Shown here: piece by piece, positions 46,579 through 52,610 of the stretch
Layout of the letters: each line of letters starts with the position of its first letter
Position numbering within the stretch: the stretch's first letter is position 1
Assembly: GCA_963847185.1 (NCBI GenBank)
Contig: CAWJYV010000001.1
Location: forward strand, 224,001 to 288,000
Direction: 5' to 3'
DNA from: an uncultured Methanosarcinaceae archaeon
Lineage (GTDB): Archaea; Halobacteriota; Methanosarcinia; Methanosarcinales; Methanosarcinaceae
Length of the DNA stretch: 64,000 nt
Position numbers and translations under genes: made by a program
The notes under the pieces: model-generated
The model's input: the letters and a program-made list of their open reading frames with translations, nothing else
Told to the model about the DNA's origin: nothing
Databases searched by the model: none

Positions 46579-47544
46579 TTGATAAGCGTCAATGAAATGG
46601 GATCCTACGTTATAGAAGAAATGCTCGACTGGAGCGAAGACCTGAAAACCGAAGTCACAAAGCTCGAAAACGGAGCTACAATAATTGACTGTGGAGTTAA
46701 AGCTGAAGGCGGATATGAAGCCGGAATGTATCTGGCAAGGCTCTGTCTGGCTGACCTTGCTGATCTTAAATACACCACCTTTGACTTGAAGGGACTTAAC
46801 TGGCCTGCCATCCAGGTAGCAACTGACAACCCCGTAATTGCCTGTATGGCTTCCCAGTATGCAGGCTGGAGAATTTCTGTTGGGAACTATTTTGGAATGG
46901 GCTCAGGTCCTGCACGTGCACTCGGTTTAAAACCAAAAGAACTCTATGAGGAGATAGGATATGAGGATGACTTTGAAGCCGCAGTCCTGGTAATGGAATC
47001 TGACAAACTTCCTGATGAGAAGGTTGTTGAGTATATTGCAAAGCACTGCAGCGTAGATCCCGAAAACGTAATGATTGCTGTTGCCCCTACGGCCTCAATT
47101 GCAGGTTCAGTCCAGATTTCGGCCAGAGTTGTAGAAACCGGAATTCACAAATTTGAATCCATAGGGTTTGACATTAACTGCATTAAGAGCGGATACGGCG
47201 TTGCTCCTATTGCTCCTGTTGTAGGAAACGATGTGCAGTGCATGGGCTCAACCAATGACTGCGTAATTTACTGCGGCGAAACCAACTACACAGTGCGCTT
47301 TGATGGGGAACTGGCAGAACTAGAAGAGTTCGTAAAGAAAGTTCCTTCAACGACTTCCAGTGACTTCGGGAAACCATTCTACCAGACCTTCAAGGCAGCA
47401 AACTTTGACTTCTTCAAGGTTGATGCAGGCATGTTCGCACCTGCCAGACTTACTGTAAACGACCTCAAGAGCACAAAAACCATAACTAGCGGTGGACTTT
47501 ATCCGGAAATTCTTCTCCAGTCCTTCGGAATAAGGCAGGTATAA
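46579..47544 (+). CDS. mch: Methenyl-tetrahydromethanopterin cyclohydrolase
   Basis: [46 protein letters not shown]; TTG start after AGGTGA. Confidence 0.96.
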
Positions 47545-47581
47545 AGAGTAATGTAGATATAAAGGGCAGATGCCCTTTTAT

Positions 47582-47641
47582 TTCTGTTTTGTTCTCTTCT
47601 GTTTTGTTCTCTTCTGTTTTGTTCTCTCTTCTGTTTTGTTC
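47582..47641. repeat. 15-bp tandem repeat TTCTGTTTTGTTCTC, ~4 copies
   Basis: Directly visible after the mch terminator hairpin. Confidence 0.85.
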
Positions 47642-48551
47642 AATTTTCGGTTTAATCTCTTTTTCGATCTCATTTTTCACTTTATTTTCGTCTATTAGCT
47701 TAGATACCTCAAAGAGAAAATGGTTTTCCTGATCTTGGAAACAGAAAACTGCGGAGCTCAACGGAGAGATTGCATAAAATAGACAAGCTATGAAGTGGAC
47801 TGACTTCAGACATATGACAGAGAATAACATGGGCAAGTCGGATATTTCCATCAGAACTTTCTAAGGATTTGGTTAAAAAGTTGGAAAAAAATGAATTACC
47901 TGTTTGGAAGTATCTTAAAGATTTACAAAGTGATAGCAGTAATATGTATAAACTGATAGGTACACAAATAAAATTGATTTTAACATTCGATAAGTGATAT
48001 AAAAATGCAAATATTGAGCTTAATATCTTATATGGCCTGCTAAAATAATACTTACTTTATTTAATGTATTTTTATGGAATTGTATTTATTTAATGAGCTG
48101 AAGCCACAAACTTTGAAAATCCGTTATAATCTTTATAATTGTGGAAGATATCTGGATAGCTTATGAATACCGTACCAAAAAGTATTATTTAATCTTATGA
48201 AATTGAAAAATGTAACAAGCACATTATGCAATTAATGTAAAACTATACTTTTACATATTTATATTAAGGAATAATTATGTATTAAATTATTTAATATGAC
48301 AAGTAATCATTGAAAAAAGAACTCTAGAATTGTGTCAAACGTATATTACATAACGAAAACAGGTACTGTTAGCTATAATATTCTAATCTAAATTCTTTTA
48401 ATCCTCTCAAAACTTTTCCTAAAAATCATGTTCATTTATATCCTAGAAAGTCCAAAAAAGTATAAAAAATTATAATTGTTCGGAAAACTGTATGAACTAA
48501 TTTCGTAAAGTACCAAAAATACTTTATAGTAGTACCACATAAGCCATGTTT

Positions 48552-49196
48552 GTCAACTCAGGAATTCAATAATAGTTGAATTAAGTCTTTTGAATGGAAT
48601 CTTTTCGGAAGAGAGTTGACCTGGCTAAAAGCCGTGACCAATAAAATAAGAGGCATTGACCAGAAGGGGTAATATCCCATGGTCAGTAGCAAATTTTGAG
48701 TAGGAGAAGCCAAAACTTCTCATGTCCGGCCACCTCCGATGACCAGTCCCTAGAAAGTGATTGGAGAGTGGAGACTCTGTGTGTAACTTGTCCGCCCCAC
48801 ATAAATCGCAGAGAACCGAATTGGATAAGGTTCAAAAATATTACGCAGACGTAATATGAATTTTTGAATGACAGTATAGAGCCGACCTGATTAGAGTATC
48901 TAACCCCTAATTAGATATGACTGGATATGTCGGAAAAAATGTATTACGAGTACGTAATGAATTTTAAGAAAATACTTGGGAAAAAGTATACAGTTACCCT
49001 ATAACTTTGACTATACTTCAACCCTACAACGATCCAACCCAAAGGTGATACAATGCTGAGAAAACAGCTAGGAAACCCTATTCCTGGTAACATACCCTAC
49101 TTAGGCAACCGTATCGGCTTTGGGAAAAACATACAATAACCCAAAAAAGATTTTGAGTAAGCTCGAAATCTAAAAACTCAACCCAAAGGTGATACG
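48552..49196 (+). ncRNA. Candidate large structured RNA / 5' leader (~645 nt)
   Basis: TTTATAGT box at 48523; at least ten consecutive hairpins, the first starting at the predicted TSS; no long ORF. Confidence 0.6.
49053..49139 (+). CDS. 28-aa uORF, a frameshifted copy of the downstream gene start
   Basis: MLRKQLGNPIPGNIPYLGNRIGFGKNIQ*; same CAACCCAAAGGTGATAC RBS context as 49197. Confidence 0.5.
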   Translation: MLRKQLGNPIPGNIPYLGNRIGFGKNIQ

Positions 49197-50084
49197 ATGC
49201 TAAAAAGACAACTAGGGACCCTATTCCTGGTCACATGCCTTATTTTAACAACCGTACCGACTGTATTTGGCGCTCAAAGTACACAAGTGATAACTGTTGC
49301 CGGAGATGGAAGCGGAAACTACAATGTTGATGGAAAAGACGATCACGTGCAAATTAACCAGGCTCTTGAATATGCAGCAAATAATCCAGGTACAACTGTC
49401 CACCTCAAAGGCCCATTTACATATGACATCGGCGATTCTCTTATGCTTGGCAGCAACACAATCCTTGAAGGTGATTCCAGCGTAACAATTAAACTTGCCA
49501 AAGGATTGCCAGCATGGGGTGGTCGAGAGAGCAGCATTTCAGAAAAGAAAGCCATGCTCATGATTAGAGGCAACTCTGCAAATGATGTCACAATTAGAGG
49601 CTTTACTGTTGATGGCAGTCAGTCAGACTACTATCCTAGCGTCAGGCTTGGAACTTCCATGTACAACATGGCAACACTCATAGGTGTTAACGGGCTAACA
49701 ATTGAGAAAGTTACATTCCAGAATGGTTGTAACGATGCGATGCTTATCTCAAAATCCAGCAACATAATGATAGACACAGTAACTGTAAACAAATGTGGGC
49801 ATGATGGTGTATATGCCTATCATGTAACTGGAATTACAGTTAAGAATTCCAAATTTATTAACCGGACTAACTCATCCATTAGATTAGATTCCGCTACCGA
49901 TGGAGTGATTACAAATAATGACTGTACCACGTCTGGCGGTGGATATGCAGGTGTAGAATTACAGGGAACTCTTAAAAACATAGAAATCTATGGCAACTAT
50001 TTCCATGACTTACCTGTTGATCCAATAGTACACTTAAACACAAATGAATCTAATGTGAAAATCCACGACAACAGAATCGAGTAA
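49197..50084 (+). CDS. Secreted right-handed beta-helix protein (disaggregatase-related)
   Basis: Signal peptide; VAGDGSG...DGKDDHVQINQAL...TTVHLKGPFTY typical of Methanosarcina disaggregatase-like proteins; GHDG. Confidence 0.8.
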   Translation: MLKRQLGTLFLVTCLILTTVPTVFGAQSTQVITVAGDGSGNYNVDGKDDHVQINQALEYAANNPGTTVHLKGPFTYDIGDSLMLGSNTILEGDSSVTIKLAKGLPAWGGRESSISEKKAMLMIRGNSANDVTIRGFTVDGSQSDYYPSVRLGTSMYNMATLIGVNGLTIEKVTFQNGCNDAMLISKSSNIMIDTVTVNKCGHDGVYAYHVTGITVKNSKFINRTNSSIRLDSATDGVITNNDCTTSGGGYAGVELQGTLKNIEIYGNYFHDLPVDPIVHLNTNESNVKIHDNRIE

Positions 50085-50638: not shown

Positions 50639-51106
50639 ATGCCAATAATAAATACATCTCAAGGAGTAGGAGGCATTCTGAACAGTTTCAAGAGCATTGT
50701 GGAAGGAGCAGAAAAGATTACTTTTGTGGGAACCCCTGGTTTCTGTACCCCCTTTGCCGAACTTCTCAGTTTTGTAGTAAGAGATAGAAAACTTGCTTTT
50801 GTTTCCAACATGGATTTTGGGAAAGCGCGATCAATCCTGATGACTCCCGAGGGCATGCAGCTTGGAGAGCTCACGGATGCACACGCTGATGTTGTTGTCC
50901 TCCTGGGAGGGCTTGCTATGCCAAAAATGGGAACAAGCCCTGAAAAAGCGATAGAAATTTCCAGAAAGGTTCTCGAAAACTCGGGAAAAAAGAAGGTTAT
51001 AGGAGTATGTTTTCAGTCTATGTTTACGCAGCAGAAATGGGATGAGATAATCAGTTTTGATTACATTATCAATTCAGATCTGGCTGTCGAAGTACTTGAA
51101 ACTTGA
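50639..51106 (+). CDS. DUF2124 family methanogen protein
   Basis: GTPGFCTPFAEL, LGGLAMP, GVCFQSMF. Confidence 0.8.
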   Translation: MPIINTSQGVGGILNSFKSIVEGAEKITFVGTPGFCTPFAELLSFVVRDRKLAFVSNMDFGKARSILMTPEGMQLGELTDAHADVVVLLGGLAMPKMGTSPEKAIEISRKVLENSGKKKVIGVCFQSMFTQQKWDEIISFDYIINSDLAVEVLET

Positions 51107-51256: not shown

Positions 51257-51814
51257 ATGGCTGCCTTATGGTCCCAATCTCATAATCTTGGAATAAAACA
51301 AAAAGCTTTTTCCTGGAGAATGGACAGACATGGAAACATCTTCATAAAGAGGAAGTTCAGGAGAGGCCGATTTCCAAAGATTGATAAAATTAGCTGTAGC
51401 TATCTCGATAAGCTCTGCAAGTTCATGCAGGATATTGAGTGGAAAGGTCTTTCAAATGATGTCTCCAAGTTGTATACAGGAACTGAAAAAGAAGGTATCG
51501 GAAAATTCCTGTACAGACTCAGGCCAGAAATTCAGTATGCTCAACTCTCTAGCCATTTAGGAGCTATTTTTTACTTCTCTGAAGTATGGAAATGGAACGG
51601 GCAGAAAAGGGGTATGAAGTTTCTGTTGCTTTCAGAGGATTGGCAGGAAAATACACTGATATATTACAGGAATTCGCTGAACGCTGAAAAAGGAGGCAGT
51701 TTTCTGGATAGTTTCCTTGAAAACACGGAAGGAAAAGAACAAAAGCAGGAAGCAAAAGAAGAAACGACTCCGGAAGTCAAGCAGACAAAACTTTCAGCAT
51801 TTTTCAATATTTAA
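51257..51814 (+). CDS. Hypothetical protein (start uncertain)
   Basis: Long ORF ending QTKLSAFF, which resembles a PCNA-interacting (PIP) box. Confidence 0.55.
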   Translation: MAALWSQSHNLGIKQKAFSWRMDRHGNIFIKRKFRRGRFPKIDKISCSYLDKLCKFMQDIEWKGLSNDVSKLYTGTEKEGIGKFLYRLRPEIQYAQLSSHLGAIFYFSEVWKWNGQKRGMKFLLLSEDWQENTLIYYRNSLNAEKGGSFLDSFLENTEGKEQKQEAKEETTPEVKQTKLSAFFNI

Positions 51815-51971: not shown

Positions 51972-52610
51972 ATGATAGCCGAAAACCTCGGGTTTTTCAT
52001 CTATACTTTCACATCCATGTTTGTGGTTGTCAGTCCAATCAGTGGAGTAGTGACTTTCATCTCCCTGACCAGCAAGATGACACAAGAGGAAAAAAACAAA
52101 ATCGCAAAAAAAGCAGTCATGCTGGCATGTTTTATTGCTCTTTCTTTTGCAATCACAGGAAGCTTTATACTTAATCTCTTCAGCATTAGTGTGGATTCAC
52201 TGCGGGTTGCCGGAGGGCTCCTGCTTTTCAGCATTGCCTTTGACATGATGCATGCTAAGGTTTCAAGAGAGAGTATTACTGATGAAGAAATTTCTCAGTC
52301 TATGGAACGAGAGGATATCTGGGTTTTTCCTATAGGTCTTCCGCTCCTTACAGGTCCGGGTACGATCAGTACTGTCATTGTTCTTATGGGTGGGGCAGAA
52401 ACCATCGAGCAAAAAATAATGATTCTTGCAGCAATTATACTGACATTTATTTTCTGTCTGTATATCTTCCTTTTCTCAAGGAGGATTCACAAACTTATTG
52501 GATATAACGGAATGCTAGTCTTTACAAGGTTGATGGGCCTGTTGCTTGCAGCTCTTGCAGTGGACCTGACTGCTCTGGGGATAATAAACATATTCCATTT
52601 AACAGTCTGA
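51972..52610 (+). CDS. MarC family membrane protein
   Basis: SLRVAGGLLL, FPIGLPLLTGPGTI, RLMGLLLAA. Confidence 0.92.
   Translation: MIAENLGFFIYTFTSMFVVVSPISGVVTFISLTSKMTQEEKNKIAKKAVMLACFIALSFAITGSFILNLFSISVDSLRVAGGLLLFSIAFDMMHAKVSRESITDEEISQSMEREDIWVFPIGLPLLTGPGTISTVIVLMGGAETIEQKIMILAAIILTFIFCLYIFLFSRRIHKLIGYNGMLVFTRLMGLLLAALAVDLTALGIINIFHLTV

Follow-up and report, generated by a model that had tools for sequence, protein, structure and literature searches.

A large conserved RNA element, probably a cis-acting 5′ leader, in front of secreted beta-helix protein genes of Methanosarcina

The 64,000-nucleotide (nt) stretch of DNA considered here (hereafter, the window) comes from an uncultured Methanosarcinaceae archaeon (contig CAWJYV010000001.1, positions 224,001 to 288,000) and carries at 48552-49196, between the gene mch and an open reading frame (ORF) for a 295-amino-acid (aa) beta-helix protein, an RNA element of conserved secondary structure. 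On balance, this element appears to be a genus-specific, cis-acting 5′ leader RNA of ~490 nt, which would set translation initiation and/or the mRNA fate of disaggregatase-family beta-helix genes. The initial annotation of the interval proposed a large non-coding RNA (ncRNA) or regulatory leader; of this proposal, the large, conserved, structured + strand RNA element stands, as judged by base pairing, fold z-score and strand asymmetry, while its regulatory effect, together with the transcription start, the effector and the physiological signal, is what we infer from the sequence.

The segment 48548-49060 of the + strand folds with a minimum free energy of -135.7 kcal/mol vs. -106.9 +/- 6.0 kcal/mol for its dinucleotide shuffles (z -4.81), none of the 100 shuffles being as good. 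Comparative evidence comes from the alignment A2 of 72 distinct copies, each containing the whole leader according to nhmmer, on which a structure of 98 pairs in 17 helices (6814 cells) was scored along with a control in which the partners were moved by 1-3 columns (slid partners); as part of this structure was taken from the sequence of the window, the control is biased in its favour. Standard pairs occupy 87.5% of the cells vs. 33-39% with slid partners, changes on both sides of a pair are found in 144 cells vs. 36-69, and the covariation score amounts to 0.129 vs. 0.041-0.061; on none of the five measures was the observed value attained by any of 500 shuffles. The hairpin tips differ in length between the copies while the stems stay. 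Overall, the secondary structure is conserved and has comparative support, as befits a structured leader.

In the + strand reading of A2, G-U cells (547) outnumber A-C cells (271), so the + strand is favoured as the RNA; an RNA of the minus strand was rejected in view of this asymmetry and of the z-score of only -2.27 obtained for the minus strand of the same segment. A protein-coding leader was also rejected, since no ORF is conserved in the 72 copies: for ATG-initiated ORFs of at least 15 aa, the fullest 5-column start bin holds 11 of the copies, and 120-column windows are free of stop codons in 1-45 of them. The parts of the leader and of its 3′ end are as follows.

48512-48530 (+): archaeal-type promoter, comprising an A-rich stretch resembling the B recognition element (BRE) and a TATA box at 48523-48530; conserved among copies.
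48552-59 with 48613-20 (+): H1, 8 base pairs (bp) with a variable inner region, arms GTCAACTC/GAGTTGAC (48552/48613) around AATTCAA/TTGAATT; 94.4% of cells paired; both-side change in six of eight pairs; CG 58 / UA 6.
48563-69 with 48576-82 (+): H1 inner hairpin of the window sequence; only 60.8% paired across copies.
48623-48633 (+): H2, 4-bp hairpin GGCT/AGCC (48623/48630); 89.0% paired.
48655-62 with 48680-87 (+): H3, 8 bp plus a short apical stem, arms including TGACCA/TGGTCA (48657/48680); 93.1% paired; wobble at one pair (GC 53 / GU 17).
48704-48721 (+): H4, GAGAAG/CTTCTC (48704/48716); inner four pairs 89.7% paired, outer two pairs 78%.
48730-40 with 48760-71 (+): H5, 11 bp with one bulge, CCAC-CTCCGAT/ATTGGAG-GTGG; 94.3% paired (A2), mostly invariant; AU 36 / GU 27 at one pair.
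48742-44 with 48756-58 (+): apical extension of H5.
48776-48812 (+): H6, 6 bp; 88.9% paired, zero both-side changes; arms CTCTG/CAGAG at 48775/48809.
48813-17 with 48829-33 (+): H7, hairpin GAACC/GGTTC with a conserved 11-nt loop; 92.2% paired.
48838-48857 (+): H8, first twin hairpin, stem ATTACG/CGTAAT, loop CAGA; six inner pairs, paired in 67-72 of 72 copies and almost never varying.
48882-48933 (+): H9 domain, CCG/CGG closing stem, ~9-bp stem and an apical part of variable length; arms CCGAC/GTCGG (48882/48929) around TATCTAA/TTAGATA.
48943-48958 (+): H10, second twin hairpin, stem as in H8, loop AGTA; 97.9% paired, essentially invariant.
48976-49119 (+): first copy of the Shine-Dalgarno (SD) module, a decoy in this locus, with H12, H11, SD GGTGAT at 49044-49, AUG at 49053 and a 28-codon upstream ORF (uORF) at 49053-49139.
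48976-80 with 49038-42 (+): H12, long-range helix enclosing H11; 90.7% paired; UA 36 / CG 18 at one pair.
48984-90 with 49012-18 (+): H11, AAGTATA/TATACTT (48984/49012); AU 33 / GC 14 / GU 9.
49120-49262 (+): second, real copy of the SD module, TTGGG at 49120-24 with CCCAA at 49182-86, SD at 49188-93 and AUG at 49197.
49148-57 with 49162-71 (+): hairpin of the second module copy, AGATTTTGAG/CTCGAAATCT (49148/49162).
49214-18 with 49224-28 (+): conserved hairpin in the coding sequence (CDS), from the RNAalifold consensus of 27 single-module loci.

The eleven helices of the initial annotation were all recovered where it had placed them, as was its BRE/TATA box near 48523, represented by the TATA-like TTTATAGT at 48523-48530; H7, the twin hairpins H8 and H10 and the long-range helix H12 were absent from it. 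Judging from its consensus, the BRE/TATA stretch probably acts as a promoter. Its columns are invariant or at least 90% conserved (alignments A1 and A2), and the conservation among the 72 copies of A2 starts abruptly at 48512-48530 and extends to the start codon. The DNA upstream of the promoter is unalignable among the copies, and no conserved DNA site beyond the core promoter was found there.

In the leader body, H6 closes a nearly invariant internal loop of ~25 nt (A2, A3), inside which a GTG/CAC mini-stem is present in most copies. Compensatory variants occur at two pairs of H7 (GC 66 / AU 4 and CG 54 / UA 4); a helix TTCAAAAAT/ATTTTTGAA at 48831/48860 competes with H7, and its 3′ positions are gapped in up to 20 of the 72 copies. 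The H9 domain varies in length from 46 to 88 nt across the copies, and most of its distinct folded variants keep the closing and inner stems while the tip hairpins differ; its compensatory pairs include UA 43 / CG 21 / UG 7 and AU 45 / GC 15. The motif shared by H8 and H10, ATTACG-N4-CGTAAT, occurs seven times in the 4.04-Mb genome, six of these occurrences being within its three leaders; the sole copy outside them is located at G000:C7:71467.

Several further pairings came to attention and are not claimed. No pseudoknot was accepted from the covariation scan, which is swamped by clade-specific substitutions. The 6-nt complementarity between TTGGAT of the H7 loop and the pre-SD ATCCAA, noticed by eye in A2, lacks compensatory changes, and a match of this length would turn up by chance within 500 nt. 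A role of the 5′ strand of H5 as an anti-SD element, suggested by its likeness to the 16S 3′ end, was dropped, as loci with GGCG in place of GGTG in the SD lack a matching change in H5. H8 and the following T5 run resemble a terminator in the window, yet an attenuator is not claimed either: one position of the T-run is C in 26 of the 72 copies, and up to 20 are gapped there.

The 3′ part of the element is modular. In tandem with 48976-49119 stands a duplicate of it, 49120-49262 (74% identity), and the window thus carries two SD modules, i.e., a basic leader of ~490 nt and one extra SD/AUG module; the initial annotation, by including the last 144 nt, which are the duplicated SD/AUG module, overstated the size of the element as ~645 nt. 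In the first copy, the uORF at 49053-49139 is a frameshifted relic of the signal-peptide start of the gene. A pattern count over the 72 loci revealed a single module joined directly to the gene in 28, a double one in 19 and three or four sites in 17, the remaining eight having a truncated or different 3′ part. Extra SD and AUG modules, one or two per locus, precede the real start in 36 of the 72 loci and are lacking in 28. The uORFs, 2-337 codons long (mostly 25-34), derive by tandem duplication from the start of the signal peptide of the gene, of which they are truncated versions; their frame differs among the loci, and several, including that of the window, are frameshifted. In the RNAalifold consensus of the 27 single-module loci, H10, H12 and the hairpin in the CDS are predicted, and the SD and AUG remain single-stranded between the latter two. 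The 3′ strand of H12 abuts the SD, and the UA-to-CG change in this helix passes through C-A intermediates.

Three full copies of the leader are present in the genome under study: that of the window and those on contigs C8 and C7, 83% and 78% identical to it, respectively. DNA matches with 69-83% identity, usually several per genome and more than 240 in the genus, were found in 54 of its 59 genomes (this one included); the family-wide DNA search returned matches in 53 of the 58 other genomes of the genus, whereas 118 genomes from 15 further genera of the same family gave none. The same restriction emerges from the covariance model R2, built on the H5-H8 core with the structure proposed here (131 positions, 35 pairs), which detects the core in 32 of the 34 genomes sampled from the genus, with 1-4 matches per matching genome, and in 0 of 116 genomes of other genera. 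Another model, R1, derived from the RNAalifold consensus of A3, was discarded, having kept only five base pairs.

A genome scored as lacking a match need not lack the element, as exemplified by G027. Its locus L081 (G027:C5:88537-92418) contains at 2558-2827 on the minus strand a diverged leader (nhmmer E 2.8e-10) with the same promoter, H1 and 5′ half, in which H8 and H10 are unrecognisable; it is situated upstream of a longer homologue, 43% identical. Both G027 and G031, high-completeness genomes scored as leaderless, are devoid of a close orthologue of the 295-aa protein, their best homologues being 43% and 41% identical, respectively. In G052, a genome 81% complete, a 67%-identical gene is preceded by no leader-like sequence.

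In 68 of the 72 leaders, a same-strand tblastn match to the protein of the window follows, beginning from residue 1. Most of the proteins behind the leaders are 65-91% identical to it and 293-313 aa long. Identity falls to only 27-33% at 19 of the 72 loci: three of the proteins there, 584-672 aa long, combine Pect-lyase_RHGA_epim, Beta_helix and Disaggr_repeat domains (the last with E 3e-88 to 7e-88), and others of this group are beta-helix proteins of 322-351 aa. At three of the non-matching loci (L019, L029 and L045), the secreted protein, of ~290 aa, begins with the same signal peptide as the others and belongs to a different family, for which Pfam gives no match; at the fourth, L030, no gene lies within the DNA compared. 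Thus, a cassette composed of the leader, the SD and the start of the signal peptide is placed before diverse secreted proteins, with the leader far better conserved (69-83% DNA identity) than the proteins behind it (down to 27-33%).

The rise in GC content, the lack of a long ORF, the secreted beta-helix gene directly behind the element and the absence of a known RNA family, all asserted by the initial annotation, were borne out. The GC content is 0.21-0.27 at 47900-48500, i.e., over ~600 bp of very AT-rich DNA, and 0.36-0.48 at 48500-48900, and the longest ORF within the leader region has 52 aa. The gene at 49197-50084 encodes a protein with Pfam domains of the Beta_helix and NosD families. 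Searching Rfam 15 at the gathering score gave no matches in the whole 64-kb window, and a permissive search (E up to 10) of 48450-49300 returned only ST7-OT3_3 (17.6 bits vs. a threshold of 50) and TtnuCD32 (14.7 vs. 100), both with E 6-7. A mobile element or known RNA was rejected, given that no Rfam match exists and that the element occurs in association with one gene family throughout. The link of the gene to disaggregatase is stronger than the initial annotation could tell: the Pfam scan of its own 295-aa protein detected Beta_helix and NosD only, Disaggr_repeat (PF06848) and Disaggr_assoc (PF08480) being absent, while the same leader stands before Disaggr_repeat proteins at all three loci examined in other genomes.

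The favoured reading, a cis-acting leader, rests on the following combination: the core promoter is conserved and the DNA upstream of it is not, the position and orientation before the SD are fixed, H12 abuts the SD, and the hairpin in the CDS is conserved. In the proposed mechanism, the leader would be transcribed from its own BRE/TATA promoter and form the 5′ portion of the mRNA for a secreted, glycosidase-like beta-helix protein. The body, H1-H10, with its fixed set of hairpins and many invariant unpaired bases, would serve as a platform for an effector, the favoured candidate for which is a sequence-specific RNA-binding protein that recognises H8 and H10, two hairpins both identical and invariant. 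In the 3′ module, the SD and AUG would lie between H12, located just upstream, and the conserved CDS hairpin, 17-32 nt into the coding sequence. The module is repeated once or twice in about half of the loci, where the upstream repeats would supply a decoy SD, an AUG and a short signal-peptide-derived uORF. The output would presumably be the control of translation initiation and/or mRNA fate.

RNA libraries provide additional information on this locus. According to an index search, 20 runs from 11 studies hold part of the stretch, 19 of them recorded as RNA; four runs from four studies were examined. Contigs within the leader cover 48570-49136 (X2, three differences), 48575-48857 (X7), 48667-49111 (X9, three differences) and 48621-49024 (X1), and a contig of a relative in X7 extends over 48828-49241, from the leader across the AUG into the CDS. 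No contig covers 48300-48543 in the four runs, which is not evidence of a start. The contig depth is higher over the leader than over the CDS (25.8 vs. 6.1 in X2), a measure which cannot rank the parts of a gene. The contigs starting at 48570 (X2) and 48575 (X7) do so right after adapter letters, within the loop of the inner H1 hairpin; such adapter-flanked starts may be ends of RNAs or of fragments.

A number of observations weigh against the cis-acting leader. As to the structure, independent compensatory events are few: each large count of changed pairs corresponds to one or two clade-level events on the tree of the copies, where wobble or mismatch intermediates appear in neighbouring lineages. 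Covariation among homologs, to which the initial annotation had pointed as a check, exceeds the slid and shuffled controls for the whole structure and not for the H5-H8 core alone, where 18 both-side cells represent no excess over slid partners (10-24) and the covariation score is attained by 72 of 500 shuffles; the core is too invariant and therefore displays no covariation. When all columns are naively scanned against one another, many spurious "covarying" pairs arise from subfamily splits and clade-specific substitutions. As to the mechanism, the consensus fold of the 27 single-module loci leaves the SD free, so no off state is visible there; neither a terminator nor an SD-sequestering alternative fold was seen in this consensus.

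Other points of this kind concern transcription. The RNA-library contigs are assemblies and show the presence of the sequence, not its strand, its ends or a single transcript. A TATA-like CTATAAAAA is situated ~28 nt before the AUG in most copies, and an X2 contig of a relative (four differences) starts at 49192, directly behind adapter letters and 5 nt ahead of the AUG, which leaves room for a separate proximal promoter; this contig start could represent a proximal transcription start or a processing site. Finally, at L005 (G000:C7:398792-401879), a beta-helix paralogue with 76% DNA identity retains ~30 nt proximal to the SD, preceded by unrelated AT-rich DNA with no leader; hence, this type of gene can exist without it.

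Some of these points would fit an independent stable ncRNA of ~450-600 nt, with its own promoter, which ends before the gene and acts in trans or in a ribonucleoprotein, the gene itself being transcribed from the proximal promoter. Such an RNA has a modest chance of being the correct explanation. It accords with the strongly conserved promoter of the leader, with the conserved T-runs TTTTGATTTTAC followed by the TATA-like CTATAAAAA 30-60 nt before the AUG in most copies, and with the proximal part retained at L005 without a leader. The true SD is not reached by the nearly identical contigs of X2 (end at 49136) and X9 (end at 49111), and that of the relative begins at 49192, yet contig ends are no evidence for RNA ends, and one RNA contig (48828-49241) crosses the AUG. 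A stand-alone transcript is also at odds with the leader being always directly upstream of one gene family, in the same orientation and contiguous with its SD, and with H12, a helix with a covarying pair that joins the leader to the bases abutting the SD.

A riboswitch or ion sensor, in which the invariant loops would form a pocket for a small molecule or a divalent cation whose binding remodels the 3′ module, is a rather unlikely alternative to the protein-recognised leader favoured here. The H6 internal loop, the H7 loop and the junctions provide, within conserved helices, the long invariant unpaired stretches that such a pocket would call for, and the lack of a conserved upstream DNA site beyond the core promoter agrees with it as well. 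So does the response of the matrix and aggregation to osmolarity and growth conditions, as stated in a 2025 review (PMC12369344). However, no known aptamer in Rfam matches the leader, no alternative terminator or anti-SD pairing was found, the gene context suggests no ligand, and the size together with the twin identical hairpins suits recognition by a protein better.

A wider proposal, also rather unlikely, would see in the element a large archaeal sensor RNA, either riboswitch-like or an RNA-protein switch, through which an environmental cue (growth phase, osmolarity or divalent cations) would govern the synthesis of a whole set of secreted enzymes that degrade the matrix. In that case, the element would exert a post-transcriptional master control of the aggregate/single-cell switch in Methanosarcina, with the decoy SD/uORF modules tuning each paralogue. 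Unlikely, and the least probable, is the case of no RNA function at all, i.e., a DNA-level regulatory region or paralogue upstream similarity maintained through gene conversion: the multi-copy state, the tandem modules resembling products of unequal recombination and the few independent compensatory events speak for it, but the 69-83% conservation throughout the genus while the proteins diverged to 27-33%, the pairing kept through wobble and compensatory changes with variable tips on kept stems, the G-U over A-C asymmetry and the presence in RNA libraries oppose it.

Returning to the leader as a cis-acting element, two sets of observations on individual copies are worth recording. The C7 copy (L003, G000:C7:330197-333838) possesses three SD/AUG modules, and the ORFs behind it are fragmented, one of 90 aa lacking a Pfam match, one of 215 aa with Beta_helix and one of 150 aa with PKD; the gene may be broken or rearranged. 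Second, partial copies of the leader were encountered directly 3′ of the first beta-helix gene, at 3234-3580 of L014 and near 3030-3130 of L015 and L028, which suggests tandem arrays of leader-gene cassettes.

The genes around the element in the window are listed below.

46579-47544: mch, upstream neighbour of the leader interval (Pfam MCH).
47486-47851 (-): ORF of 121 aa, no Pfam match above the cut-off.
49197-50084 (+): beta-helix gene, 295-aa secreted right-handed beta-helix protein (Pfam Beta_helix 8.7e-12, NosD 4.5e-07).
50639-51106: DUF2124 neighbour.
51257-51814 (+): ORF of 185 aa, no Pfam or NCBIfam match.
51972-52610: MarC neighbour.

The 295-aa protein has 406 homologues in Methanosarcina spp., named in the sources as right-handed parallel beta-helix repeat protein or polygalacturonase, and no relative in the PDB was found for it by sequence. 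The source names of these homologues identify the genus as Methanosarcina. To our knowledge, few large structured regulatory RNAs of archaea have been described. In the literature searched in full text, neither a description of this leader nor a large structured regulatory RNA for the remodelling of the Methanosarcina cell surface was found, though supplementary tables or lists of start sites could include starts or small ORFs at orthologous loci. According to the report on ribosome profiling in M. mazei, its Supplementary Data 5 and 8 list small ORFs in 5′ untranslated regions (UTRs) (PMC11456600).

According to the 2025 review, dissolution of the matrix has been characterised only in M. mazei and its control is open (PMC12369344). 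The secreted proteins marked by the leader form a coherent set: beta-helix proteins both short and long, Disaggr_repeat proteins and a family without a Pfam match. They are natural candidates for the enzymes dissolving the methanochondroitin matrix. The leader offers a testable handle on the regulation of aggregation and dispersal, one that is genetically tractable in Methanosarcina species, as well as a new RNA family for structural and RNA-protein studies.

Within the same genus, a close parallel is the S-layer gene slmA1 of Methanosarcina, which has a conserved 154-nt 5′ UTR (PMC3361143). The two have in common a conserved promoter and a conserved structured UTR before a secreted surface protein; the slmA1 UTR is three times shorter and confined to one gene, whereas the present leader is multi-copy and bears repeated SD/uORF modules. 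The occurrence of an SD, an AUG and short ORFs before the real start in 36 of the 72 loci is reminiscent of control by uORFs or leader peptides. In contrast to such systems, the frame is not kept, the uORFs derive from the signal peptide, and 28 loci have none.

Large cis-regulatory leaders of mRNAs, or riboswitches, are typified by the T-box and the M-box. Like these, the present element combines an extended 5′ leader structure with unpaired bases that do not vary; it is located directly before the SD and recurs before functionally coherent genes. Unlike them, it is archaeal, limited to one genus and, at ~490 nt, much larger; it has no Rfam match, and no ligand, terminator or SD-sequestering alternative fold was found for it. 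OLE, GOLLD, HEARO and ROOL are large orphan structured RNAs known from bacteria or phages, mostly stand-alone. The leader, which matches no Rfam family, approaches them in size and number of helices and differs from them in being archaeal and physically joined to an SD and an AUG.

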